DNA from: Gammaproteobacteria bacterium
Lineage (GTDB): Bacteria > Pseudomonadota > Gammaproteobacteria > UBA4575
Assembly: GCA_965243395.1 (NCBI GenBank)
Contig: CBDEUS010000002.1
Location: 910,491 to 974,490, forward strand
DNA length: 64,000 nucleotides
Direction: 5' to 3'
This document shows, in pieces, positions 128 to 51,936 of this stretch (positions within the stretch are counted from its first letter, which is position 1; each line of letters begins with the position of its first letter). Below the pieces are notes generated by a model. The model was not told the origin of the DNA and did not search any database. It worked only from the letters and a program-made list of their open reading frames with translations. Both the position numbers and the translations under genes were made by a program.

Positions 128-1087
128 TCACTGCATAGATTTTTTTTGGCGTTCAATAAAATCTTCACTGGCATTGTAACCATTCTTAATTAGTAAATGA
201 TCACGCACAGCTGCTTCTACTAGTACCGCTAAATTTCTGCCCGGCGCCACAGGTAATGAAATCGTGGCAATATCTACGCCAAGAATATTGGTTTTTCTTT
301 CTGATAATCTAAGTCGATCTTCAGATTTAGGTACGTTCATCTTGGGAGGGATTAGATCAATAATTAATTTAAGAAATTTATTAGATTTAATTGCACTATC
401 ACCATACATCTCACGAATATTTAATACCCCTAATCCACGAACTTCTAAAAAGTTTTTTAACAAATCGGGGCAAGTGCCATTTACAGTTTCGGGTGCGATG
501 CGTGCAAATTCAGGTGCATCATCTGCGATTAAACGGTGTCCTCGACTAACAAGATCCAGGGCGAGCTCACTTTTTCCTAGACCACTTTTACCCGTTATTA
601 ACACTCCAACACTGATCACTTCCATAAAAACACCATGCAGTATTTCTTTTTCTGCGAGGGCTTGGGTTAAGTAGTAACGTAATTGATCAATTAACTCATT
701 ACTGGAGAGTGAAGAACAAATAATTGGCAAATCATACTTGAGAGAGTGTTCCCTGAAACTTTCAGGTGGTGTTAGACCATCACTAATAAAAATTGCGGCA
801 GATTTTCTTTGGAATAATTGGGTAAGCAAATTTTGTAAAATATTATCATCAGCTTTGTTGAAAAACTTTAATTCAGTTTCACCAAGAATTTGAGCTTGGT
901 TTGGGTGTATTAAATTAAAATAACCCACTAAGCCAATTTCAGAGGAAGAGAAAGATAAGCGGGTGAAACCGAGGCCACTGTCTTTATTTCCAGACCACCA
1001 ATTAAGATCTAGGTTTTCTTTGTTTTTTGAAAACAGATCTATAGTTTTAAGCGCTACAGTAGCATCTTGTGGTTTTCCAACAGCCAT
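128..1087 (-). CDS. hprK: HPr kinase/phosphorylase
   Basis: The 319-aa ORF carries a P-loop GKSGLGKSE followed by LVSRGHRLIADD and LEVRGLGVLN, which are characteristic HprK motifs. It lies between ptsN and rapZ. Confidence 0.85.
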   Translation of the reverse strand: MAVGKPQDATVALKTIDLFSKNKENLDLNWWSGNKDSGLGFTRLSFSSSEIGLVGYFNLIHPNQAQILGETELKFFNKADDNILQNLLTQLFQRKSAAIFISDGLTPPESFREHSLKYDLPIICSSLSSNELIDQLRYYLTQALAEKEILHGVFMEVISVGVLITGKSGLGKSELALDLVSRGHRLIADDAPEFARIAPETVNGTCPDLLKNFLEVRGLGVLNIREMYGDSAIKSNKFLKLIIDLIPPKMNVPKSEDRLRLSERKTNILGVDIATISLPVAPGRNLAVLVEAAVRDHLLIKNGYNASEDFIERQKKSMQ

Positions 1088-1171
1088 ATAGTTTATATAC
1101 AGCTCTATTTAGAACTGATCAAGATAAAACTCAGTTTGATGTGCAGTGAACGTAAAAGTTGTGCCCGAAAG

Positions 1172-1639
1172 CTAGGCAGCGAGGTGTTTTGGGTCTTGGG
1201 TGAGAATCTGATACAGCTCTGAAGCATTATTAGATTCTTGGATGGATTTTCGTAATTGCTCATTGTCGAGTAGTTCCGCAAGGCCCGCTAAAAGCTGCAG
1301 GTGATCCTCGTCTGCGTCTTCAGGTACGATCAGGCAAAACAAAAAATTCACTAAGTGTTCATCGCTAGCTTCAAAATCAACACCTTCCTCTAATTTAAGG
1401 ATTGATACAAAGATATTATCCAGCTCTTCTAATCGGCAATGAGGAATTGCAATTCCATTACCTAAGCCTGTGCTTCCCAGCTTTTCACGTGCGAGCAGCG
1501 CATCAAGCACTTTATTTTTGTTTACACTAGTATCTTGATGAGCTATTGCCTCACTTAAAATTTCAAGTGCTCTTTTTTTACTACTAACCGAGGGAGAGAA
1601 AACAATCCCTTGTTCAGAGATAAAATCTTTGATTTGCAT
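1172..1639 (-). CDS. ptsN: PTS IIA-like nitrogen regulatory protein EIIA-Ntr
   Basis: The 155-aa ORF has a PTS EIIA type-2 fold with an active-site His context (GIAIPHCR). Its position downstream of hpf matches rpoN-cluster synteny. Confidence 0.85.
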   Translation of the reverse strand: MQIKDFISEQGIVFSPSVSSKKRALEILSEAIAHQDTSVNKNKVLDALLAREKLGSTGLGNGIAIPHCRLEELDNIFVSILKLEEGVDFEASDEHLVNFLFCLIVPEDADEDHLQLLAGLAELLDNEQLRKSIQESNNASELYQILTQDPKHLAA

Positions 1640-1663
1640 GCTATTGAAGAAATTATTATTGGA

Positions 1664-1984
1664 CTAATGTATTACGTGATGTTCAACGTCACGTTGGTGA
1701 TGATCTTTAAGCTTTTCTTTATGTTTAACGATCTGTCGGTCTAGCTTATCTACTAAGCTGTCTACTGCTGCATACATTCCATCGCTTGTTGCCTCAGCAA
1801 ATATATTATTGCGACTTACTTGCAAAGACGCTTCTGCATGATGATCATGTTTTTCTACAGTTAAAATTACATGAATATTAATTACATGATCAAAGTGTCT
1901 GGTTAGTTTTTCAAATTTTTTTTCTACGTAGTCCTTTAATGAGGTTGTGATTTTAAGATGTTGCCCCGTTATATTTATTTGCAT
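1664..1984 (-). CDS. hpf: ribosome hibernation promoting factor
   Basis: The 106-aa ORF resembles the YhbH/Hpf family (MQINITGQHLKITTSLKDYVEKKFEKL) and sits immediately downstream of rpoN. Confidence 0.85.
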   Translation of the reverse strand: MQINITGQHLKITTSLKDYVEKKFEKLTRHFDHVINIHVILTVEKHDHHAEASLQVSRNNIFAEATSDGMYAAVDSLVDKLDRQIVKHKEKLKDHHQRDVEHHVIH

Positions 1985-2044
1985 AATTATTCCCTCAATC
2001 TTATAGCTAATAGTAAATCACAGACTTTAAGAGATTAAAACAGC

Positions 2045-3520
2045 CTAAATGATTTGTTTCCTTTCATTAGAAGGCGGTATTCCTAAAGATTCCCTATATT
2101 TAGCAATGGTACGTCGCGCAACACTGATGCCTTTTTGTTCAAGTAATAATGCTATTTTATTATCACTTAGTGGTTTTACTTGTGATTCTTCTTTAATTAG
2201 TTTTTTAATCATGGCGCGAATTGCTGTCGCGGAACAAATTCCCCCATCATTTGTGTTGACATGACTGGAAAAAAAGTATTTAAACTCAAATACCCCACGT
2301 GCAGATTCCAAATATTTATTTGTTGTTACACGTGAAATTGTAGATTCATGCATTTCTAATTCTTCAGCAATTTCGCGTAACACCAGTGGACGCATTGCTT
2401 CTTCTCCATACTCAAAAAATGCTCTTTGGTGTTGCACAATTGAAGTTGCCACTCGCATTAGCGTTTCGTTGCGACTTTGCAAGCTTTTTATAAACCATCT
2501 TGCTTCTTGTAGCTGATTACGTAAATAGTCTGCGTCTGCGCCATTGCTAGAATCTTTTATTAGGCTTGAATAGACATCATTAATGCGTAATTTTGGTGCA
2601 CTATCGGAGTTAAGTCTTACTCTCCAAGTGCCTTCATGTTTTGCTACATACACGTCGGGAATTATATATTCTGCTTTTTGAGTGCTTACTAAATCACCAG
2701 GTCTAGGATTGAGTGATTGAATTAGTTTGATGGCTTCTTCTACATCTTCAATATCAAGTTTTGTATGTTTTGAAATCTGTAGATGATTTTTTGTTGCCAC
2801 TAAATCTAAGTGGTGTTCAACAATCATGCGCGCTTCAGGCACAAAAGGAGTTGCATCAATCATCTGTTGCAATTGGATATCTAAACATTCTTGTAAATTC
2901 CGAGCACCTGAGCCAATCGGGTCCAGTCGTTGCACGAACTTTAATATTGCCTCAACTTCATCTAAATCGAGCTGATCTGCATCAATTTCGCGTTCTTTGA
3001 TTAGATTTTCATAAATACTTTCGACCGGCTCCTGCAGATAACCGGATTCATCTAAATAATCGATTAATGTGCTAGCGATAATACGGTCTAAATCTGAGAG
3101 GGTACTGAGCTCTAGCTGCCAAAGTAGATGTTCTTGCAAGGAGTTCTGGTCTTCACTACTTTGATTTTCTAAAAATTCAGAGTAATCGTCAGTTTTCTGA
3201 CTCCCGGAGATGGCGTGACTAGGTTCATAATAATCATCCCACTGGCTATCTGTGGGAAGCTCATCAGGTAAATTTTCGTTTTGACCTAGTTCAGCAACCT
3301 CAGTTGTTGGTTCATCATTTTCATTTTCCTTACTGCTCGGTGTAAGCGTTTCAAGTGATGTCTCATCCTCTGTTTCCAGCATAGGGTTGGTCTCAAAGGC
3401 TTCCTGAATTTCTGCTTTGAGCTCTAATGAAGAAAGCTGCAATAAGCGAATCGCTTGCTGCAGCTGAGGGGTCATCGTAAGTTGCTGACCAATTTTGACT
3501 TGAAGTGAAGGTTTCAGCAT
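2045..3520 (-). CDS. rpoN: RNA polymerase sigma-54 factor
   Basis: The 491-aa ORF has the canonical N-terminus (QLTMTPQLQQAIRLLQLS), an acidic region II and the C-terminal RpoN box (ARRTIAKYRE). Confidence 0.95.
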   Translation of the reverse strand: MLKPSLQVKIGQQLTMTPQLQQAIRLLQLSSLELKAEIQEAFETNPMLETEDETSLETLTPSSKENENDEPTTEVAELGQNENLPDELPTDSQWDDYYEPSHAISGSQKTDDYSEFLENQSSEDQNSLQEHLLWQLELSTLSDLDRIIASTLIDYLDESGYLQEPVESIYENLIKEREIDADQLDLDEVEAILKFVQRLDPIGSGARNLQECLDIQLQQMIDATPFVPEARMIVEHHLDLVATKNHLQISKHTKLDIEDVEEAIKLIQSLNPRPGDLVSTQKAEYIIPDVYVAKHEGTWRVRLNSDSAPKLRINDVYSSLIKDSSNGADADYLRNQLQEARWFIKSLQSRNETLMRVATSIVQHQRAFFEYGEEAMRPLVLREIAEELEMHESTISRVTTNKYLESARGVFEFKYFFSSHVNTNDGGICSATAIRAMIKKLIKEESQVKPLSDNKIALLLEQKGISVARRTIAKYRESLGIPPSNERKQII

Positions 3521-3531
3521 ACCTTCAATTA

Positions 3532-3547
3532 TGGCACGAAAATTGCT
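3532..3547 (+). promoter_or_regulatory. sigma-54 -24/-12 promoter-like element (TGGCACGAAAATTGCT) on the strand opposite to rpoN, 12 nt from the rpoN start codon
   Basis: The sequence is an exact match to the TGGCACG-N4-TTGCW consensus. GG sits at 3533-3534 and GC at 3545-3546, giving the correct spacing. It points into the antisense strand of lptB. Confidence 0.45.
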
Positions 3548-3665
3548 TCTAAAATACTAATTATGGTAACTGCTCGTCGTCTTAATGGCGCATACAGTAC
3601 ATCATAAGAATTATTCCTAGTGTACTAATGCGACATTTATTTGACAGTATTGTGTGTGAATAAAA

Positions 3666-4394
3666 CTAATTGAGTGTGAAGTTTGAACCAAGATAGACAT
3701 CTTGCACTTCTTTGTTGCGTAATAAATTCTCTGGCGTACCTGATGCGAGAACACGACCTTCGTTTAGAATGTAAGCGTGATCACATATGCCTAAAGTTTC
3801 ACGGACATTATGATCTGTAATGAGTAAACCTATACCTTTATCGCGCAGCTCTTTTAAGATGCGTTGAATATCTTTTACAGCAATTGGATCAACACCAGCA
3901 AAGGGTTCATCAAGTAGTATAAATTTAGGCTGCGTTGCAAGTGCTCTCGCAATTTCTGCACGTCTTCTCTCGCCACCGGATAAACTTAAGCCTTTATGAT
4001 CACGTATATGTTCAATTTGTAAATCATCAAGTAACGACTTGCATTCTTGTTTTCGCTGGTTGCTTGTTAAGTTGCCACGTGCTTCAAGACTTACCAAAAT
4101 ATTTTGTTCTACAGTAAGTCCGCGAAAGATTGAAGCTTCTTGCGGTAAATAACCAATACCATGTTTAGCGCGTTGATGCATAGGCATACGAGTGATGTTA
4201 CTTTCATCCAATAAAATTACTCCATCATCACAATGGATTAGGCCTACCAACATGTAAAAGCATGTAGTTTTACCCGCACCGTTGGGGCCCAATAAACCAA
4301 CAACTTCACCAGATTTAATCTCTAGTGAAGCATTATCTACCACTACACGTGATTTAAACTGTTTGCACAGGTTTTCTGCACTAAAAATACTCAT
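3666..4394 (-). CDS. lptB: LPS export ABC transporter ATP-binding protein
   Basis: The 242-aa ORF has Walker A (GPNGAGKTT), an ABC signature (LSGGERRR) and Walker B (ILLDEP). It lies directly upstream of rpoN as in E. coli and Pseudomonas. Confidence 0.9.
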
Positions 4395-4431
4395 TAATCT
4401 AATTGTGAATTATTGATTTGTAAGAGTTTTG

Positions 4432-4956
4432 TTATTCAGATGCATCTTTAACAGTTTCTGGAAATACCCTGATATTGACACGATCGTTACCAGAACTACT
4501 ACCAGCTTTAACAATTTCTTTATCTGTAAAAAAAGTGATGCTATCACTAGCAAAGGTATTTCCAGCTTCGGTTAATTTTGCGTTATTGGTCAAAACTATT
4601 TTATTTTCAGTGATGCTGTAAACCATTTTTTCGGCTTCAGCATTAATTAAACGTCCATCATCGGTTTGCTGCTTAAACGTACTTAACTTGCCTTCAGAAG
4701 TAATCTTTTTCACTTTCTTGTTTTTCGTTTCTAGGACCACTACGTCACCCGTAAGGCGCATACTTCCTTGAATTATTTCGACATTACCTTTGTAAGTACT
4801 AATACCCGTTATGTCGTTAATTTCTGCAGAATCAGCCTGAATATTTATTGGTTTGGTTGAATCATCTGAGAGGGCATTTGCATAATCACTGAGTAGAAGC
4901 ATGAATACTAAAGCGAAAATAAGCTTAATAAAAATTTTAACTTTATTATGGATCAT
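4432..4956 (-). CDS. lptA: LPS transport periplasmic protein LptA (OstA-like)
   Basis: The 174-aa ORF has a signal peptide and OstA-N-like beta-jellyroll repeats. It sits between lptC and lptB. Confidence 0.75.
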   Translation of the reverse strand: MIHNKVKIFIKLIFALVFMLLLSDYANALSDDSTKPINIQADSAEINDITGISTYKGNVEIIQGSMRLTGDVVVLETKNKKVKKITSEGKLSTFKQQTDDGRLINAEAEKMVYSITENKIVLTNNAKLTEAGNTFASDSITFFTDKEIVKAGSSSGNDRVNIRVFPETVKDASE

Positions 4957-5509
4957 GTTGGGCTTTCACATTGCTATGCAGTTGTAAGATTTTAGTATCA
5001 AGATTTAGCGTCATCCCAAGTGCAGTAATTTTTTGTGATCCGCGTGATGCGGTAACGGGCAAATCTGTTGTTACCTGTTGTTCACTTTGTGAAACTCTAA
5101 TTTTATCGGTAAAAATATTTAATGGATATGGGTCTTCCTTGGTTGCAGGTTGTGTAATCTCTACATTTCCAATTAAAGTAATCACATCATTTTCATTATA
5201 CGTTTCACCTTTTTTAGAGGTAGCATAAATTACACTACCATTCTTGTTGTAAATTTCTATGTTAGGTGAGTCAAACTCGCTTTTTTGTTCCTGTTGATAA
5301 AGCCAATATTTAGGTGAAGATAACTTATACTGGGGTTGTCCTGCTGGTGAGTTAATAATCATATCAATATTTTCAAAACTTACGTTCGGTATGTCATTGT
5401 TATTTACTACAGGTGAATTAGTAATATTTTCACGCTGATTTAAAAATGACAAAGTTAGCCCGCCGCCTACGAATATTAAGCAGAAAATCCATATGATTCT
5501 ATAAGGCAT
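4946..5509 (-). CDS. lptC: LPS export system protein LptC
   Basis: The 187-aa ORF has an N-terminal membrane anchor followed by a periplasmic domain. It sits between kdsC and lptA. Confidence 0.7.
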   Translation of the reverse strand: MPYRIIWIFCLIFVGGGLTLSFLNQRENITNSPVVNNNDIPNVSFENIDMIINSPAGQPQYKLSSPKYWLYQQEQKSEFDSPNIEIYNKNGSVIYATSKKGETYNENDVITLIGNVEITQPATKEDPYPLNIFTDKIRVSQSEQQVTTDLPVTASRGSQKITALGMTLNLDTKILQLHSNVKAQHDP

Positions 5510-5512
5510 GCT

Positions 5513-6055
5513 TTATGGGCCTTTTCTAAGATTATATTCAAGTGCTTTTGTTAATAGACCTTGTGATTCTAATAACAGTTCACACACTTCGCGTACAGCT
5601 CCATGGCCTCCATGGGTAGTTGTCTGCCAGTGCGCTTGTTGCTTTACATAATAATGTGCATTGGCTACTGCAATACTTAAACCGCATTGCGACATAATTT
5701 GTAAATCGACAATGTCATCGCCAACAAATGAAGTTTGCTCTTTGCTTAGATTTAATTCTTTTAACAAATCGTTATAGACCGAGTGCTTGTCAATTACTCC
5801 TTGATATACATGTGCTACATCTAAATCTCGCATGCGGTGTTCTAATGCCTTTGATGTCCGCCCCGTTATTACCCCCACTTGAATTCCATAATGCTGCAAT
5901 AAACGAATGCCATGGCCATCTTGGGTATTAAATGTTTTAATTTCCTCACCATTGGCATCAACATGTATGTTACCGTCAGTTAAGACGCCATCTACATCAA
6001 ATAATGCTAAACGAATGTTTTTAGCGCGTTCTAAAATTTTATTTTCTATTTTCAT
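5513..6055 (-). CDS. kdsC: 3-deoxy-D-manno-octulosonate 8-phosphate phosphatase (HAD family)
   Basis: The 180-aa ORF has the HAD motif I (ALFDVDGVLTDG) and shows the KdsC family pattern. Confidence 0.85.
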   Translation of the reverse strand: MKIENKILERAKNIRLALFDVDGVLTDGNIHVDANGEEIKTFNTQDGHGIRLLQHYGIQVGVITGRTSKALEHRMRDLDVAHVYQGVIDKHSVYNDLLKELNLSKEQTSFVGDDIVDLQIMSQCGLSIAVANAHYYVKQQAHWQTTTHGGHGAVREVCELLLESQGLLTKALEYNLRKGP

Positions 6056-6056
6056 T

Positions 6057-7001
6057 TTATATTGACTGTATATATATAAAGTACATATAAACTAAGTATC
6101 CACTGAGAAAAAGTAATCCAAAAATTCGTGGAATATATTTTTTACGTAAAAAAATTAGTACCAATGCAAACAATATCGCAGTTGCAAATAACATCGCGGG
6201 ATAATCACGTGTAAATACTTGATCTGGTAATGAATAACTTGTGATTAAGCTGGCTGTAGCCGTTACACCAAGCGTGTTAAATATATTTGAGCCAACAACA
6301 TTACCAAGTGCAAGTTCACTATGTTTTTTTAGTGCGCTAGCAACACAGGTGGCTATTTCTGGCAAGCTAGTCCCAAGAGCGATTATCGTTAAGCCTATTA
6401 TTAAATCACTCACTCCAAGATTTTTTGCAATACCCACAGCCGCCCATACAACTAATTTTGAACTTAGCAGCAGTACTACAAGTCCAACAATTAAATCGAA
6501 AATAATTCTTACAGTCGGCTTATTATTGCCTATATTTTCGATGGCATGTTCTATCTCGCCATCACATTTTGATAAAACATAAAGTGTTATGAGTAAAGCG
6601 AGTAATAAAATTAAACCATCTAGGAATGTTAACTGATGGTCATAAATCAAAACCGTTAATAGAATGGTCGCTGCGAGTAATAATAAAAAGTTTCGACGTA
6701 CGATTTCAGCATAAATTACGAGTGGCAAAATGCACAAAGTGACCCCAAGTACGAGAGTTATGTTAGTGATATTCGAACCTATGGCATTACCGATTGCTAA
6801 GCCAGGATTCCCCTGCCAGGCCGAAATTGCAGAAACCAATAATTCCGGTGCCGAGGTACCAAAACCTAATATCACAATGCCAATAAGGATTTTTGATAAA
6901 TTTAGATGTTGACCTAGAAGGAGTGCTTCATCGGCGAAGCGATTTGCACTCCACAATAACAGCAAAAACCCTAATACCAAGGCAATTATGAAGGTCAACA
7001 T
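6057..7001 (-). CDS. yrbG: Ca2+/Na+ antiporter family membrane protein (YrbG-like CaCA exchanger)
   Basis: The 314-aa polytopic membrane protein has two alpha-repeat motifs (GTSAPEL and GTSLPEI). Its position next to kdsC matches E. coli yrbG. Confidence 0.8.
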   Translation of the reverse strand: MLTFIIALVLGFLLLLWSANRFADEALLLGQHLNLSKILIGIVILGFGTSAPELLVSAISAWQGNPGLAIGNAIGSNITNITLVLGVTLCILPLVIYAEIVRRNFLLLLAATILLTVLIYDHQLTFLDGLILLLALLITLYVLSKCDGEIEHAIENIGNNKPTVRIIFDLIVGLVVLLLSSKLVVWAAVGIAKNLGVSDLIIGLTIIALGTSLPEIATCVASALKKHSELALGNVVGSNIFNTLGVTATASLITSYSLPDQVFTRDYPAMLFATAILFALVLIFLRKKYIPRIFGLLFLSGYLVYMYFIYIQSI

Positions 7002-7170
7002 ATATACGATTTTAGTTTATAGAGTTTGAGATGAGTGCGTCGCCAAGCATACTATAAGCAGGTATGATATTCGGCTTGAATTATAAGTCGAAATAATCAC
7101 TTAGACTGGGAATATAATTCTCGCGCAGCGGAATCGCTATAGCAAACCATTATATATAAGAATAATAACA

Positions 7171-7968
7171 GTGGAATCAATTGTACAAATTCGCGATCTG
7201 CATTTTACTCGTGGCACTCGCAAAATCTTCAATGGTATTAGTTTAGATATACATGCCGGGCAAGTGACAGCTTTTATGGGCCCTAGTGGCACCGGTAAAA
7301 CTACATTATTAAAGCTGATAGGTGGTCAGTTGCGCCCGGATAAAGGCTCCGTACAGGTGTTTGGCGAGAATATTCACCATGTTAATCAAGAAACACTTTA
7401 TACAGTGCGTAAAAAAATGGGCATGCTTTTTCAAAGTGGCGCCTTACTAACTGATTTGAACGTTTTCGAAAATGTCGCCTTCCCATTACGCGAACATACT
7501 CAATTGCCAGAACAAATTATCCGTGATCTTGTCTTACTTAAGCTTGAATCAGTGGGTTTGCGTGGAGCGAGAAAACTCATGCCAAGTCAATTATCAGGTG
7601 GAATGGCAAGGCGTGTAGCTTTAGCAAGAGCGATCGTTCTTGACCCAAGTATGATTATGTATGATGAGCCGTTTACTGGGTTAGATCCTATCACTAAAGG
7701 CACTATTGTAACTTTAATAAAAGAGTTAAATGAAAGTATGGGTTTAACCAGTGTTATTGTTTCTCATGATGTTGATGAAACATTGTCAATCGCGGACTAT
7801 ATCTATGTAATTTCTGAAGGTGAAATTGTCGAGTCTGGAGCTCCAGATAACTTATCCACCAGTACATCCGATTGGATGCAGCAGTTTCTGCAAGGTTTAC
7901 CGGATGGTCCGGTACCATTTCATTATCCATCTGAAGAATTTAAATCTGATTTATTAGCGGGTAGATAA
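7171..7968 (+). CDS. mlaF: phospholipid ABC transporter ATP-binding protein MlaF (GTG start)
   Basis: It has Walker A (GPSGTGKTT) and an ABC signature (LSGGMARR). It is the first gene of the mlaFEDCB block. Confidence 0.9.
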
Positions 7969-8753
7969 TGATTGCTTCTACATTACAAAATATTGGTGCG
8001 CGTGCTTTAGGTGTTTTTGAAAGCTTTGGCAGTGCGTCAATATTTTTCGCCAAAATCATTGCTGCTGTACCTCGTGCACTTACCCGGCCACGACTTATTG
8101 TAAAGGAAATATATTCAGTAGGTGTTTTGTCTCTAACCATTATTGTTGTATCGGGTCTTTTCGTGGGTATGGTGCTGGGCTTGCAAGGTTACGTGACACT
8201 CGTTGACTTTGGCGCCGAAGAATCTTTGGGTGTAGTTGTGGCAATGACTTTAGTGCGTGAATTGGGTCCTGTGGTAACGGCATTACTTTTCGCTGGACGA
8301 GCAGGTTCAGCATTGGCCGCTGAAATTGGCCTAATGAAAGCAACAGAACAACTTTCAAGCATGGAAATGATGGCAGTAGACCCCATCCGACGCATCATCA
8401 CACCGCGATTTATTGGTGGTTTTATCTCGGTACCTTTGCTAACTGCGATTTTCACTGCAGTGGGCATCTTAGGAGGAAGATTTGTAGGTGTTGGAATGTT
8501 AGGTATTGATGAGGGTTCCTATTGGTCGCAAATGCAGGCCAATGTTGATCTTATTGATGATGTTGCCAACGGTATGATTAAAGGAGTGGTATTCGCAGTA
8601 GCGTGTGTGTGGATTGCCTTATATAAAGGCTATTCTGCAATACCTACGGCAGAAGGAATTAGTTTAGCAACGACGCATACTGTGGTTAATTCTGCATTAG
8701 CAGTTTTAGGATTGGATTTTGTGTTAACTGCTTTAATGTTTGGTGACTTATAA
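7968..8753 (+). CDS. mlaE: phospholipid ABC transporter permease MlaE
   Basis: The 261-aa ORF is a membrane permease and is translationally coupled to mlaF. Confidence 0.9.
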
Positions 8754-8789
8754 ATAAAATTTTAAAAATAAAGTTAGGATAGAACTAGT

Positions 8790-9248
8790 ATGACGACGCG
8801 TTTTATTGAAATCATGGTGGGGCTATTTGTAGTGCTTGGTTTTTTAGCATTGTTTATGTTGGCAATGAAAGTGAGTAACTTAAGCCGTTTAACCGACAAT
8901 GATGGTTACGAAGTCACTGCTTACTTTGAAAATATTGGTGGTTTGAAGGTGCGCTCACCGGTGACTGTATCGGGTGTGAGAGTTGGACAAATAACGAGTA
9001 TTGTTTATGATGCAGATCGTTATGAAGCTCGTGTAGTGATGCGAATTCAAGATGAGCATGACTATTTTCCGATTGACACTACTGCGAGCATTTATACCGC
9101 GGGATTATTGGGGGAACAATATATTGCCTTAGAGCCAGGGGCAGAAGATGATGTATTAACCTCAGGTGATACCATAGAATTTACTCAATCAGCTCTGGTT
9201 CTAGAGGAGATAATTGGCAAAATTGTTGTCAAACTAACATCTGGGTAA
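8790..9248 (+). CDS. mlaD: MCE-domain substrate-binding protein MlaD
   Basis: The 152-aa ORF has an N-terminal TM helix followed by an MCE domain. Confidence 0.85.
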   Translation: MTTRFIEIMVGLFVVLGFLALFMLAMKVSNLSRLTDNDGYEVTAYFENIGGLKVRSPVTVSGVRVGQITSIVYDADRYEARVVMRIQDEHDYFPIDTTASIYTAGLLGEQYIALEPGAEDDVLTSGDTIEFTQSALVLEEIIGKIVVKLTSG

Positions 9249-18870: not shown

Positions 18871-20285
18871 GTGAGTCATCAAAAACTGTAGAGCCTCAGG
18901 GTCTGTTGGGTTGGATAGATGCTCGTTTTCCTCTCACCAAGATGATAAGGGAGCATCTATCGGAATATTATGCACCGAAAAATTTTAACTTCTGGTACTT
19001 CTTTGGTTCCCTCGCGTTACTTGTACTCGTTATTCAAATTTTAACCGGTATCTTTTTAACTATGCATTATAAACCTGATGCAGAACTAGCATTTGCATCG
19101 GTAGAACACATCATGCGTGATGTGAATTGGGGCTGGTTAATTCGTTATATGCATTCTACGGGCGCATCATTCTTTTTTATTGTTGTGTATTTGCACATGT
19201 TCAGAGGTTTGATGTATGGCTCATTCAAAAGTCCCCGTGAACTCATTTGGATTTTTGGCATGCTTATATATGTTGCCTTAATGGCTGAAGCTTTCATGGG
19301 TTATTTATTGCCTTGGGGCAATATGTCTTACTGGGGTGCACAAGTAATTATTAACTTGTTTAACACCATCCCTGGAGTTGGCGAAGCGATTTCTGAATGG
19401 TTGCGTGGTGATTTTGTAATTTCTGATGCCACGTTGAATCGATTTTTCTCATTGCACGTCATTGCAGTTCCTCTTGCATTGTTAGGTTTAATCGTTGGGC
19501 ATATTCTTGCTTTGCATGAAGTAGGCTCTAACAACCCTGATGGTGTTGAAATTAAAAAGCTTAAAGATGCAAATGGCGTACCACTAGATGGAATTCCTTT
19601 TCACCCATACTACACCGTGAAAGATATTTTTGGAGCGGTGGTGTTCTTAGCAATATTTTCTGGCGTTGTATTTTTCTGGCCTGAAGTAAACGGTTATTTC
19701 TTAGAGCATGCTAACTTTGATCCTGCAAATCCGTTAAATACGCCGGATCATATTGCACCCATTTGGTATTTCACGCCGTTTTACACTGTTTTGCGTGCCG
19801 TACCCAATCCATTTGGTGGATTCTTAATGATGGGTTTAGCCATCATAGTTCTATTCTTCTTGCCATGGATAGATCGTAATCCTATTAGATCAATCAGATA
19901 TCGTAGCTTATTATTCAAGATAAACTTATGGATATTTGCCATTACATTTATCATTCTAGGTTATTTGGGATTAAAGCCTGTTACAGATTTATATTCACAA
20001 TTAGCTTTACGTTTTACGCAAATTTATTTCATATTTTTCTTTGTGTTGTGGGCCTATAACAAACCGCGTTCAAATGGATTCTGGACAGGTAGTTTTATAG
20101 TGCTTTTAGGAAGCATCGTTTTATATGACTTTGTAAGGAGTAGGGGTGTGGATGATCCATCCATAATTGCGTTGACTTGGTGGACCTTGTTAATTCCTGC
20201 AGTATATTTATTTCTAACCCTGTTGATGCCAGAGCTATCGAATTGGGATCGAGAAAAAGAAGTTCCAGAGCGAGTGACATCATGA
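18867..20285 (+). CDS. petB: cytochrome b of bc1 complex, with extra C-terminal insertion
   Basis: The 472-aa ORF has the conserved N-terminal region and heme-ligating His residues. It is about 65 aa longer than typical proteobacterial cytochrome b. Confidence 0.9.
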   Translation: MSESSKTVEPQGLLGWIDARFPLTKMIREHLSEYYAPKNFNFWYFFGSLALLVLVIQILTGIFLTMHYKPDAELAFASVEHIMRDVNWGWLIRYMHSTGASFFFIVVYLHMFRGLMYGSFKSPRELIWIFGMLIYVALMAEAFMGYLLPWGNMSYWGAQVIINLFNTIPGVGEAISEWLRGDFVISDATLNRFFSLHVIAVPLALLGLIVGHILALHEVGSNNPDGVEIKKLKDANGVPLDGIPFHPYYTVKDIFGAVVFLAIFSGVVFFWPEVNGYFLEHANFDPANPLNTPDHIAPIWYFTPFYTVLRAVPNPFGGFLMMGLAIIVLFFLPWIDRNPIRSIRYRSLLFKINLWIFAITFIILGYLGLKPVTDLYSQLALRFTQIYFIFFFVLWAYNKPRSNGFWTGSFIVLLGSIVLYDFVRSRGVDDPSIIALTWWTLLIPAVYLFLTLLMPELSNWDREKEVPERVTS

Positions 20286-27928: not shown

Positions 27929-28315
27929 GGAGTTAGCTAAGCAGTCGCTGCTCCACTTAATTTGATGGAGCATATGTTTTCCACCAAATTAAGTGGGGCA
28001 GAGGAAAGTCCGGGCTCTATGGGCAAGGTGCCAGGTAACGCCTGGAGAACGTGAGTTCATGGAAAGTGCAACAGAAAGTAAACCGCCTAAGTTTTTAATT
28101 TGGGCAAGGGTGAAAAGGTGTGGTAAGAGCGCACCGCACAACTGGTAACAGGAGTGGCAAGGTAAACCCCACCCAGAGCAAGACCAAATAGAGGGGCAAG
28201 GAGCAATCCAGCGCATGGCCCGTGCGGTCCCCGGGTAGGTTGCTCGAGGCTTGTGGTGACATAAGCCCTAGATGAATGACTGCTCTCGACAGAACCCGGC
28301 TTATCGGCTAACTCC
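27929..28315 (+). ncRNA. rnpB: RNase P RNA (bacterial type A)
   Basis: It has a P1 pairing between GGAGTTAGC and GCTAACTCC. The conserved blocks GAGGAAAGTCCGGGCTC, GGTGCCAGGTAACGCCTGG, GGTAAGAGCGCACC and ACAGAACCCGGCTTATCGG are present. It lies between rsmI and mraZ as in other gammaproteobacteria. Confidence 0.9.
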
Positions 28316-28571
28316 AATTCAAGGCTGGCCATAGCTTTTCGTGTGTGCAGGATTGTGCTGAGCGAGCATGAAATATATCGCTACCCCCTATTCTTAATCT
28401 AAATTATCACTATTCTCGTTTAAACCTTCAGAATCCCGTAAGTTAATCGCAAAATACCTTGTATTTTTCAGGGTATAAAGTGTCTTAACTATCTGTCTTA
28501 TAAGAAATTTTTTAGCATTTTTCTATTTAATTACTTGCAATCCGACGGGCTCGTTTCTATAGTGTCAAAAA

Positions 28572-30284: not shown

Positions 30285-32003
30285 ATGAAGAAAAATCCAA
30301 TTTTTCCAGCACGCCGAATATTTTTGTTGTCTATGTTTGTAATTGGTCTCGGTGGTTTGTTTGTAAGATCAGTTTATTTACAACTATTCGAGCACGAGTT
30401 TTTAGAGGAGGAAGGTAAGGCGCGCCATCTGCGAGTAGTCGAAATTCCTGCCCACCGTGGCATGATTTTAGATCGAAATGGGGAGCTACTCGCAGTGAGC
30501 ACGCCTATACACTCTGTGTGGGCTAATCCGTTGGAAGCATTACAGAGCCACAAAGCTATTCGTAATCTTGCCCTTATCCTTGATATGAATGCGGACCGCT
30601 TAATTAAAAAGTTGCAAGGTAAAAAAGATCGTCAATTCTTATATGTGAAACGACACATTGGTCCACAACAGGCTGAAAAATTAAAACAATTAAATAGTAA
30701 AGGTATCCATCTACAGCGCGAATATCGTCGCTATTATCCAACTGCAGAAGTTAGTTCTCATCTTTTAGGATTTACAGATATTGATGATAAAGGGTTAGAA
30801 GGAATCGAACTTGCATACGAGCAATGGTTGCGAGGTCAACCGGGTGCAAAAAAAGTTATTAAGGATTCTTACAATCGAATTGTTGAAGACGTTGAGGCGA
30901 TGAAAATACCAGAACCTGGGAAAGATATCGTACTTAGTATCGATAGAAGAATTCAATACCTTGCTTACCGAGAACTAAAAGCCAATCATTCTAAACATCG
31001 TGCTAAAGCTGCTTCCGCTGTTTTAATTGATGCCAGAACGGGGGAGGTGTTGGCAATGGCAAATACGCCCGCATTTAATCCAAATAATCGTACTGGTTAT
31101 AGTCGTGGCACATATCGTAATCGAGCAGTTACGGATGTTTATGAACCTGGTTCAACAATAAAACCTTTTACGATCGCATCAGCATTAGAGTCACAGCGTT
31201 ATTCTCAAAATACGATTATTGATACCTCTCCGGGTGAATATCAGATTGGTGAGTTTACGATTCGCGATCATAAGGATTATGGCGCACTTTCGGTAAGTGA
31301 AATTATTCTTAAATCGAGTAATGTTGGTGCGACAAAAATTGCGCAAACTATTCCTGCACAAGAATTATGGTCTACTTTTAGTGCAATCGGGATTGGTCAT
31401 TCAACAGAATCTGGTTTTCCTGGTGAAGTTTCAGGACACTTAAAATATTTCCAGGACTGGCGCAAAGTGGAACATGCCACGATGTCTTATGGTTATGGCA
31501 TGTCGATGACGAGTTTGCAGCTTGCAAGATCTTACATGGTGTTAGCGTCAGGTGGGCAGTTACTACCTATTTCCATGCTACGAAAATCTGAAAAAGAGCT
31601 TGCCGAAATGAGCAAAACTCCTGCCATCTTTTCGCCACAAACAGTTGATAAAGTTGTCAGCATGTTGACTGCTGTGGTGTCCGATGAAGGCACCGGTTCA
31701 CGTGCAGCAATACCTGGATACAGTGTGGCAGGTAAAACGGGCACGGTGCATAAATCTTCTAAAGGCGGCTATGAAGAAGATAAGTATATTTCAGTATTTG
31801 CAGGTATGGCGCCCGCGAGTGATCCAAAATTGGTGTTGGTTGTCATGGTAAATCAACCAAATAGAGGAGTTTATTTCGGTGGCGAAGTAGCGGCACCTAT
31901 TTTTTCTAAGATCATGGGAGGTGCTTTACGCATCCTTAATATTTCACCAGATCGAGTGCCTTTACAGGCAAATGTTGAGCAATCTCAAAATCATGCTGGT
32001 TAG
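30285..32003 (+). CDS. ftsI: peptidoglycan D,D-transpeptidase FtsI (PBP3)
   Basis: The 572-aa ORF has the transpeptidase motifs STIKP, SSN and KTGT. Confidence 0.9.
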   Translation: MKKNPIFPARRIFLLSMFVIGLGGLFVRSVYLQLFEHEFLEEEGKARHLRVVEIPAHRGMILDRNGELLAVSTPIHSVWANPLEALQSHKAIRNLALILDMNADRLIKKLQGKKDRQFLYVKRHIGPQQAEKLKQLNSKGIHLQREYRRYYPTAEVSSHLLGFTDIDDKGLEGIELAYEQWLRGQPGAKKVIKDSYNRIVEDVEAMKIPEPGKDIVLSIDRRIQYLAYRELKANHSKHRAKAASAVLIDARTGEVLAMANTPAFNPNNRTGYSRGTYRNRAVTDVYEPGSTIKPFTIASALESQRYSQNTIIDTSPGEYQIGEFTIRDHKDYGALSVSEIILKSSNVGATKIAQTIPAQELWSTFSAIGIGHSTESGFPGEVSGHLKYFQDWRKVEHATMSYGYGMSMTSLQLARSYMVLASGGQLLPISMLRKSEKELAEMSKTPAIFSPQTVDKVVSMLTAVVSDEGTGSRAAIPGYSVAGKTGTVHKSSKGGYEEDKYISVFAGMAPASDPKLVLVVMVNQPNRGVYFGGEVAAPIFSKIMGGALRILNISPDRVPLQANVEQSQNHAG

Positions 32004-49009: not shown

Positions 49010-49221
49010 GAAAAGTCCTAGAATAAATTGTATCTCTGTATCGATTGAATTATAGATAGTATCGCTTTGTTATTTCTTTCTTTAGGCTAGTGTATACTTC
49101 CCTGCTAGCTTCAAACGTAAAACTTATATTTGTTCACTAAAATTATTAGATTTGGTTCATTCTGCAATATTGTGGAAGTTGTACCGATCTTTTAACACAC
49201 GTCTAGTATTAAAATTAACGT

Positions 49222-51936
49222 ATGTTTCAAAAAATATTTGGTAGTCGCAATCAGCGATTAGTCAAGCAATATAGTAAGGCAGTTAAAAAAATTAATGATC
49301 TTGAGTCTTCATATAAGGCTTTAGATGATCAGGCATTAAAAAATAAAACTCTTGAGTTTCGTGAACAGTTAAAAAATGGCACGAGTCTCGAAGCTATCCT
49401 TCCAGATGCATTTGCTACTGTTCGAGAAGCTGCAATTCGAACTTTGGGCATGCGTCATTTTGATGTGCAGTTAATAGGCGGCATGGTACTTAATGATGGC
49501 AAGATTGCTGAAATGAGAACCGGTGAGGGTAAAACACTGGTAGCGACTTTACCAATCTATCTAAATGCCTTGACGGAAAAAGGTGCTCATGTTGTTACTG
49601 TCAATGATTATTTAGCTAAGCGTGATGCTGAGTGGATGGGGGAGATCTATCGATTTCTCGGTTTGAAGGTTGGTGTCATCACGGGGGGCATGATGCATGA
49701 AGAGCGTAAAGAAGCTTATGCCGCGGATATTACCTATGGCACCAATAATGAATTTGGTTTTGATTATTTACGTGACAATATGGAATTTTCTATCGAAGGT
49801 TGTGTGCAGCGCGAACTTAATTTTGCTGTTGTGGATGAGGTGGATTCCATTTTAATCGATGAAGCACGCACGCCTTTGATTATTTCGGGTCCGACTGGTG
49901 AAAATTCCGAAATGTATATGGCAATTAATAAGTTGGTACCTAAGTTGATTGCACAAGAAGAAGAAGAGGGGCCGGGCGATTACAGCGTCGATGAAAAGAG
50001 CAAGCAAATTTTTCTTACCGAGGAAGGACATCAGCATATAGAAGAGATGCTTGTTGGGCAGAAGTTATTGGGTGAGGGCGAAACACTTTATGACACTGCA
50101 AATATAAGTTTATTGCATCATATTAATGCGGCATTACGTGCACATGCATTATTTCAAAAAAATGTTGATTATATTGTTAAGGAAGGCCAGGTCATCATCG
50201 TAGATGAATTTACCGGTCGAACTATGCCGGGACGACGTTGGTCCGATGGTTTGCACCAAGCTGTTGAAGCAAAAGAAGGCGTGAAAATTCAAAATGAAAA
50301 TCAAACATTAGCTTCAATAACATTTCAAAATTATTTTCGTCTTTATGACAAGCTTTCAGGTATGACGGGTACCGCAGATACCGAAGCATTCGAATTTCAG
50401 TCTATTTATGGATTAGAGGTAGTCGTGATTCCAACTCACAGGGATATGGTCCGTGATGATATGGGCGATTTGGTTTATCTAACACTCAATGAAAAATACG
50501 ATGCAATAATCGACGACATAAAAGATTGTGTGCAGCGTGGTCAGCCAGTATTGGTAGGAACAACATCCATTGAGTCATCAGAACTTATTTCCAATGTATT
50601 AAAAAAATCTAATATTGAGCATCAGGTACTCAATGCAAAACAGCACGAAAAAGAGTCTCACATTATTGCTCAGGCAGGTCGACCGGGTACGGTTACGATC
50701 GCCACGAATATGGCAGGTCGTGGTACTGATATTGTGTTGGGAGGAAGTTTAGATGCTGAGTTGCAGGCATTAGATGATGAAAGTAAAAACAATTCCAACA
50801 TCGAAGATGTTAAAACAGAGTGGCAAAATCGTCATGATGCCGTGATAGATTCCGGTGGTTTGCATATTATTGGAACGGAAAGACATGAATCACGACGTAT
50901 AGATAATCAGTTGCGTGGTAGGTCTGGCCGCCAAGGTGATCCGGGTTCAAGTCGTTTTTATCTATCCATGGAAGATAATTTAATGCGTATTTTTGCCTCC
51001 GATAAAGTCAGGGGATTGATGCAAAAATTAGGCATGCAACAAGGTGAGTCCATCGAGCATCCATGGGTATCAAAAGCCATTGAGAATGCACAACGGAAAG
51101 TTGAATCACATAACTTCGATATTCGTAAACATTTATTGGAATATGATGATGTAGCCAATGATCAACGCAAAGTTGTTTATGAACAGCGACGTGACCTAAT
51201 GCAAGAGGAAGATATTTCAGAGAACTTAGCGGCAATTCGTGAGGATGTTACTGAGGCAGAAATTAATCAATATCTACCACCTGGAAGTATGGATGAGCAA
51301 TGGGATGTCGAAGGTCTAACGAATGCATTTAAAAGTGATTTTGGTTTAACGTTTCCTATTCAGCAATGGCTGGATGAAGATGACATGGTTGCCGAAGAAG
51401 AAATACGTGAGCGAATTCATGAACGAGTAGCAAAATTATTTCAGGAAAAACAAGATCGCATTGGTTCTGATGCCATGCGTCAACTTGAGAAAAAGTTTAT
51501 GTTAGATGTGCTTGATCATCGTTGGAAGGAACATTTAGCGGGTATGGATTATTTGCGCCAAGGTATTGGCTTACGTGGATATGCACAAAAAAATCCGAAA
51601 CAAGAATACAAACGCGAAGCCTTTGGTATGTTTCAAGAAATGCTTGAGCAAATTAAACATGAAACCGTGTCTTTAATTTCTAGAGTTGAACTGCCAACGC
51701 TTGAGGAAATTAAAGCCATGGAAGCTGCTCAACGTGTACCTGAAAACATACAATATCAGCATGCCGAAGCGGATGATTTGCTGCATCCAGAACAGATACA
51801 AGAAGATGTACCTCAAGCAGAAGAGCAAGTTAAACAACAGCCATTCAAACGCACAAACAAAAAAGTTGGTCGTAACGAGCCTTGTCCTTGTGGCTCAGGC
51901 AAAAAATATAAGCAATGTCATGGTAAGCTAACTTAG
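49222..51936 (+). CDS. secA: preprotein translocase ATPase SecA
   Basis: The 904-aa ORF has DEAD-like motor domains and a C-terminal zinc finger ([14 protein letters not shown]). Confidence 0.95.

Follow-up and report, generated by a model that had tools for sequence, protein, structure and literature searches.

What does a full-consensus sigma-54 promoter element do when it stands eleven nucleotides before the start codon of rpoN, the gene for sigma-54 itself, and points away from that gene? The control of sigma-54 levels is poorly understood and most accounts give the level as low and unchanging; to our knowledge, only a few old genetic reports have dealt with autoregulation of rpoN. Here, we describe such an element in a 64 kb stretch of DNA from an uncultured gammaproteobacterium (hereafter the window), where it lies in the 145 bp spacer (3521-3665) between lptB and rpoN. 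The two genes are read from the minus strand: rpoN (2045-3520, 491 aa) matched the NCBIfam sigma-54 profile NF004595 with 679 bits and lptB (3666-4394) the LptB profile TIGR04406 with 379 bits, and the gene order across the locus is the usual yrbG-kdsC-lptC-lptA-lptB-rpoN-hpf-ptsN. The N-terminus of RpoN (MLKPSLQ...MTPQLQQ) aligned to sigma-54 family models from residue 1-3 onwards. The gene beyond rpoN-hpf-ptsN is hprK, encoding HPr(Ser) kinase/phosphatase (window 128-1087, minus strand), in the position that is occupied by rapZ (yhbJ) in E. coli.

The first-pass annotation had called a perfect -24/-12 match at 3532-3547 on the plus strand of this spacer, and the call was confirmed from the sequence. 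The element scores 12/12 against TGGCAYG-N4-TTGCW with a GG-to-GC spacing of 10 nt, and the 11 nt at 3521-3531 separate it from the rpoN ATG. It is the sole zero-mismatch occurrence of TGGCACG-N4-TTGCW in the window, for which base composition predicts 0.0068 perfect matches over both strands and 1.4e-5 in the lptB-rpoN spacer, and sigma-54 itself is encoded by the same genome in the adjoining rpoN. With up to two mismatches, 13 sigma-54-like matches were found window-wide against 9.8 expected. Two boxes with a single mismatch, at 19568-19583 and 31611-31626 (both minus strand), lie antisense within long open reading frames and are probably chance matches. The box had also been placed over the ribosome-binding region of rpoN, a placement that the sequence contradicts: the GAAGG at 3523-3527 falls outside the box, between it and the ATG, is not conserved in relatives, and is unfit as a Shine-Dalgarno sequence because it stands only 1 nt from the start codon. 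The features on which the argument turns are the following, fractions of 20 referring to the window together with 19 relatives:

3518-3520, minus strand: start codon of rpoN, ATG in 20/20 sequences
3521-3527, minus strand: linker TGAAGGT between the hexamer and the ATG, 7 nt here and 6-7 nt in all relatives, variable in sequence
3528-3536, minus strand: putative extended -10 sigma-70 element TGcCATAAT, overlapping the -24 half of the box, its 9 bases invariant in 20/20 sequences
3532-3547, plus strand: sigma-54 -24/-12 box TGGCACGAAAATTGCT, pointing away from rpoN, with GG at 3533-3534 and GC at 3545-3546
3551-3564, minus strand: tract rich in T that reads TTAGTATTTT on the rpoN strand, kept in closer relatives and spanning the predicted sigma-54 start region on the other strand
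3558-3560, plus strand: predicted transcription start should the box fire, which the geometry rule of Bonocora et al. 2015 puts 19 bp downstream of the motif centre
3569-3598, minus strand: degenerate copy of a hairpin that reads ACGG-GTCG-loop-CGAC-CCGT in closer relatives, its inner stem lost in the window

The first-pass annotation had left conservation of the motif in related genomes to be checked, and this turned out strongly in its favour. The RpoN of the window was scanned against species-representative genomes and metagenomes, which yielded 160 loci. Nineteen of these carry an RpoN at least 60% identical to that of the window (60-86%; L001-L013, L035 and L081-L085); they belong to uncultured, metagenome-assembled gammaproteobacteria, some with records titled Thiotrichales, and make up with the window a clade set of 20 sequences that share ancestry, so that a count over them does not add up independent events. 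All 19/19 relatives have the box at the same place and in the same orientation, on the strand opposite rpoN and 10-11 nt from the ATG, with a match of 11-12 of 12 in 19/20 sequences and 10 of 12 in L008. On the rpoN strand, the form common to the relatives is GCAA-N4-CRTGCCATAAT, placed 6-7 nt before the ATG. An alignment of all 20 sequences anchored on the motif gave 14 invariant positions, GCAA..C.TGCCATAAT, followed by 6-7 variable nucleotides and the ATG, and the invariance of GCAA..C.TGCC with the N4 left free is the bipartite pattern of sigma-54 recognition. Across the clade the spacer measures between 98 and 190 nt, with all length changes on the lptB side, and the distal half of the spacer is unalignable even between closer relatives. 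Synonymous sites in rpoN codons 1-130 are saturated and freely variable, and only 1/100 of the last third-codon positions of lptB is invariant, so the lptB 3' end hides no conserved promoter. The box is the sole clade-wide conserved non-coding block between lptB and rpoN. Since it was kept in 19/19 relatives while spacer, linker and synonymous sites diverged, it is no chance match but a real element, and almost certainly a functional one.

Conservation also takes in the ATTA immediately 5' of TGGCA (3528-3531 on the plus strand), which is found in 20/20 clade sequences, including the GC-rich spacers of L010-L013. Other clades, in their sense-oriented boxes, show no such constancy at these four bases (ATTA, ATAT, ACAC, ATAG, CTTA); TGGCA is required by sigma-54, but we know of no strong sigma-54 preference for the four bases in the published consensus. 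Read on the rpoN strand, ATTATGGCA becomes TGCCATAAT, which has the make-up of a TG-extended -10 element: A-11 and T-7 are there, and C for T-12 is the one departure, for which the TG extension plausibly makes up. This overlapping extended -10 for rpoN was absent from the first-pass annotation. A -35/-10 consensus scan found no promoter in the spacer, and the proposed rpoN promoter would therefore be -35-less, with the -10 as its one element.

The hexamer CATAAT starts 12-13 nt before the ATG in 20/20 sequences, the distance that is usual for the -10 of leaderless genes. In published computational work, such genes are marked by TANNNT some 12 nt ahead of the start codon, in low-GC genomes with a TG extension and no -35 (Zheng et al. 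2011, PMC3160421); the placement of the hexamer is alike in the two cases, while the start at rpoN is predicted from geometry and conservation. The length of the linker fits the distance from a -10 element to a transcription start, so that the transcript would begin with the A of the start codon or with the base preceding it, and position 3520 (minus strand) is accordingly listed by us as the putative sigma-70 start of rpoN. A pyrimidine stands just before the ATG in 17/20 sequences, a weak bias when set against a local background of 7/11, and this is in keeping with the favoured arrangement of a -1 pyrimidine and a +1 purine. We infer that rpoN may be served by a -35-less extended -10 promoter giving a leaderless or near-leaderless mRNA. 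Leaderless mRNAs are uncommon in Gammaproteobacteria, and if the proposal is true, a housekeeping regulator of this class would be expressed from one.

No Shine-Dalgarno sequence is conserved at the rpoN starts of the clade, and most neighbouring genes of the window are without one as well; none was recognisable at hprK, ptsN, lptB, lptA, kdsC and yrbG (gene starts, window 128-9248), and the host appears to use few of them. Given these neighbours, the missing Shine-Dalgarno is non-diagnostic and was no longer counted in favour of a leaderless transcript. The hexamer TAAAAT, a -10-like sequence agreeing at 5 of 6 positions, stands 6-7 nt before the ATG at two other starts of the window, at 7002-7021 (minus strand) before yrbG, the first gene of an operon divergent from mlaF, and at 49201-49224 (plus strand) before an open reading frame of 904 aa. 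These two genes are possible further cases of leaderless transcription.

What, then, would sigma-54 do at this site? The sigma-54 holoenzyme forms a stable closed complex on promoters and does not melt DNA without an ATPase activator, and its footprint extends from about -34 to -5. In the reading that we prefer, the conserved near-consensus box, inverted over the rpoN core promoter, acts as an autogenous operator. The holoenzyme would sit on the box as a stable closed complex that does not open without an activator, and would cover approximately 3524-3554, within the region needed by a sigma-70 polymerase starting at 3520. An occupied box would deny this polymerase the overlapping rpoN promoter, more sigma-54 holoenzyme would lead to less rpoN transcription, and the feedback would keep sigma-54 at a set level. 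The invariance of the box in 19/19 relatives implies that sigma-54 most likely limits its own production in this clade. In 20/20 sequences the box overlaps TGcCATAAT and has a C at -12; the promoter role of TGcCATAAT, like the binding, the sigma-70 start site and the repression, is a part of the model that we infer. To the full mechanism, comprising silent docking, occlusion of the sigma-70 promoter of rpoN and negative autoregulation, we give an even chance, and we place higher confidence in the broader proposal of a functional sigma-54 site tied to the control of rpoN. About 30 bp would appear to hold two overlapping and opposed polymerase sites, which amounts to a compact and testable cis mechanism. 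The -12 element TTGC (3543-3546) falls in the spacer region of the sigma-70 promoter, outside the -10-like element, and the -12 half can be mutated without touching the putative -10, which makes the two functions separable by experiment.

The region upstream of the box, as seen from lptB, bears on where transcripts could end. Terminator-like hairpins with T-tracts occur on the rpoN strand in 6/20 spacers, just upstream of the box, against 1.8 in shuffled sequences, and no shuffle reached 6. In L001, L083 and L085 the T-rich tract comes after a hairpin in the manner of a terminator U-tract, for example AUUUUUUUAGUUUUU in L083. The degenerate hairpin of the window at 3569-3598 is probably the remnant of a partly decayed intrinsic terminator of lptB; wobble pairs in the conserved hairpin (8 on the sense, rpoN strand against 3 on the antisense strand) make the strand assignment suggestive only. 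If an lptB terminator stands upstream of the box, rpoN would need a promoter within the last 35 or so nucleotides of the spacer, and as the terminator-like hairpin of the window is degenerate, transcription coming from lptB may also extend into rpoN. On the antisense strand, terminator-like hairpins were found in 8/20 spacers against 3.8 in shuffles, with 1/40 shuffles reaching 8; this slight enrichment means that the box may additionally fire. The spacer of L001 (2903-2957) holds two convergent terminator-like hairpins, one per strand, an arrangement compatible with an lptB terminator as well as with a short antisense RNA, some 70 nt long, made from the box. RNAalifold, run on both strands, returned only a hairpin of 3-4 bp with no covariation and a consensus energy of -0.4 kcal/mol, and RNA of the window spacer folded no better than shuffles on either strand (z = -0.9 and about -1).

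An activator-dependent antisense transcript across lptB had been the second proposal of the first-pass annotation. Used as a promoter, alone or together with an operator role, the box would give rise from about position 3558 either to a short non-coding RNA that stays inside the spacer or to an RNA antisense to the lptB 3' end, and its downstream side in this orientation consists of spacer and antisense lptB only. A box of full consensus facing 108 nt of non-coding DNA is what such a promoter might look like, AATACTAA around the predicted start is kept in closer relatives, and antisense hairpins with U-tracts, as in L001, L002 and L035, exceed the shuffled expectation. These points must be weighed against an Rfam search of 3300-3900 that returned nothing at E up to 10, the low consensus and window folding scores given above, the failure of the distal half of the spacer to align among closer relatives, and the lack of a conserved small open reading frame on the antisense strand. 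Nor did the 390 bp upstream (rpoN codons 1-130), which take in the usual enhancer distance of about 70-200 bp, contain a conserved enhancer at synonymous sites, a scan in which activators that work without binding DNA leave no trace, and a six-frame scan of the window for the GAFTGA motif revealed no activator gene. A promoter role would also leave unexplained the invariant ATTA, the fixed 6-7 nt to the ATG and the boxes of opposite orientation found at rpoN elsewhere. The antisense transcript thus gained little support, with antisense hairpins in 8/20 spacers set against the missing enhancer, RNA structure and Rfam match, and we hold this use of the box to be unlikely. The two functions may also be combined into a two-way switch, in which idle holoenzyme parked on the box would shut the leaderless rpoN promoter, whereas busy activators would fire it in the antisense direction, yielding a short terminated RNA, clearing the site and allowing more rpoN mRNA. 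Such a switch is speculative and, in our estimate, distinctly improbable; if true, it would couple sigma-54 synthesis to demand, and rpoN boxes of either orientation would represent a widespread and largely unstudied form of level control in Gammaproteobacteria. Structured sigma-54-dependent small RNAs of the GlmY, Qrr, CrcZ and NrsZ types were considered as candidates and rejected, there being no Rfam match, no conserved structure and antisense hairpins in only 8/20 spacers. Across the whole 64 kb window, Rfam recognised RNase P RNA only, a bacterial class A molecule at 27929-28319 (plus strand, 323 bits).

Bound holoenzyme could, in place of occluding a promoter, act as a roadblock against readthrough from lptB into rpoN, and this was the mechanism first put forward for the site. 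Its premise of a sigma-54 docking site tied to rpoN autoregulation is upheld by conservation and position; the roadblock itself fared less well. The site does lie between lptB and rpoN, the terminator-like hairpin of the window is weak, and just 47 nt, in which no terminator is called, separate the corresponding genes of E. coli. However, several relatives appear to end their lptB transcripts before the box, and a roadblock needs neither a fixed distance to the ATG nor an invariant ATTA. In E. coli, moreover, sigma-54 bound inside genes was without effect on their expression, and the authors took a roadblock to be effectively excluded (Bonocora et al. 2015). We judge the roadblock less likely than promoter occlusion and its prospects to be slim. 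A further alternative dispenses with sigma-54 altogether and takes the block as merely the sigma-70 promoter of rpoN, a signal for translation or a site for some other DNA-binding protein, with a coincidental resemblance to a sigma-54 box. A -10 element alone could explain the TGCCATAAT half, but not the invariant GCAA exactly 10 nt from the GG across a variable N4, which in a sigma-70 promoter would fall in the spacer at about -25 and have no role. Coincidence would also have to account for a match of 11-12 of 12 in all sequences except L008 (10 of 12), adjoining the very gene for sigma-54, and for different sigma-54-like boxes at rpoN in three other lineages, and we regard it as very improbable indeed. 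Sigma-28, sigma-32 and sigma-E promoters were tried for the conserved block and rejected on a poor fit to consensus, as judged by eye.

Occlusion of the rpoN promoter by sigma-54 holoenzyme, our preferred reading, combines elements of known kinds, namely the occlusion of sigma-70 promoters by sigma-54 and the autoregulation of rpoN, and is no new category. In E. coli, sigma-70 promoters that overlap a sigma-54 site are repressed by the sigma-54 holoenzyme, which competes with them for the DNA, as documented in vitro for the promoters of four genes, namely argT, chaC, mdfA and patA, and a C is present at -12 in every repressive site (Schaefer et al. 2015, PMC4551910). The crl gene is a further case of overlapping promoters, going by the citation of Zafar et al. 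2014 in Bonocora et al. 2015. The locus in the window shares with all of these a consensus box with C at -12 over a putative sigma-70 footprint. It is unlike them in that the target would be the sigma-54 gene, the box is inverted, and the promoter is apparently a -35-less extended -10 starting at the ATG. Two sigma factors using one short stretch of promoter DNA are likewise found at glmY (2009 study cited in Bonocora et al. 2015); the glmY promoters run in the same direction and share a start, whereas those proposed here are back to back with starts about 39 bp apart.

Negative autoregulation of rpoN in rhizobia, to which the first-pass annotation had appealed, is indeed published: in Rhizobium etli (rpoN1) and R. 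leguminosarum, sigma-54 lowers the expression of its own gene, a genetic observation in alpha-proteobacteria. The rpoN2 gene of Bradyrhizobium japonicum and rpoN of Pseudomonas putida are also reported to be subject to negative autoregulation. The self-lowering that we propose is of the same kind, although the rhizobial and Pseudomonas cases are genetic observations and ours would apply to uncultured gammaproteobacteria.

Sigma-54-like boxes at rpoN are not confined to the clade of the window. Boxes of at least 10 of 12 were found within 150 nt upstream of rpoN at 61/160 loci (40 sense, 21 antisense), an approximately 40-fold enrichment over the background of 0.009 boxes per 150 nt in the same loci, bearing in mind that the 160 gammaproteobacterial loci are phylogenetically related and that box counts do not equal independent events. 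The presence of boxes in both orientations speaks for a tie with rpoN itself, as in self-control based on occupancy, and not with a neighbouring transcript, and their enrichment suggests that direct self-control by DNA occupancy is common. In the E. coli control locus (L161, 1813-1859), the spacer measures 47 nt and includes a ribosome-binding AGGAG, but it contains no sigma-54-like box even when 3 mismatches are allowed, so the arrangement is lineage-specific. In several bacterial classes, for example in Geobacter sulfurreducens, sigma-54 promoters in sense orientation have been predicted in silico upstream of rpoN and were read as autoregulation (PLoS One 2025, PMC12316311). These have in common with the window a sigma-54 box at rpoN, but they face the gene and could drive it in a positive, activator-needing manner, whereas the box of the window faces away and cannot transcribe rpoN.

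Among the 160 loci, a clade with RpoN about 55% identical to that of the window carries a sense-oriented ATGGCACAAC(A/T)TCTGCATAA situated 56-80 nt upstream of rpoN (L015-L017, L086-L095, L099, L101, L102, L105, L106, L119 and L128), and AAGAAGTTTTAAT is conserved near its rpoN start codon. This sense box could serve as a sigma-54-dependent rpoN promoter, in which case the autoregulation would be positive, or as one more docking site. In a third lineage, with Pseudohongiellaceae among its members, a sense-oriented ACGGCACGATACTTGCT stands 41-107 nt upstream of rpoN (L064, L069, L124, L138, L146, L148, L151, L154, L158 and L159). In a fourth lineage, which includes Spongiibacteraceae (L040, L042, L071, L116 and L143), the box is inverted and takes the form TGGAAYG-N4-CTGCA, 39-129 nt upstream of rpoN. 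A -10-like CTA[CA]ACT comes before it on the rpoN strand, and this lineage may thus hold a second, independent inverted box at an rpoN promoter.
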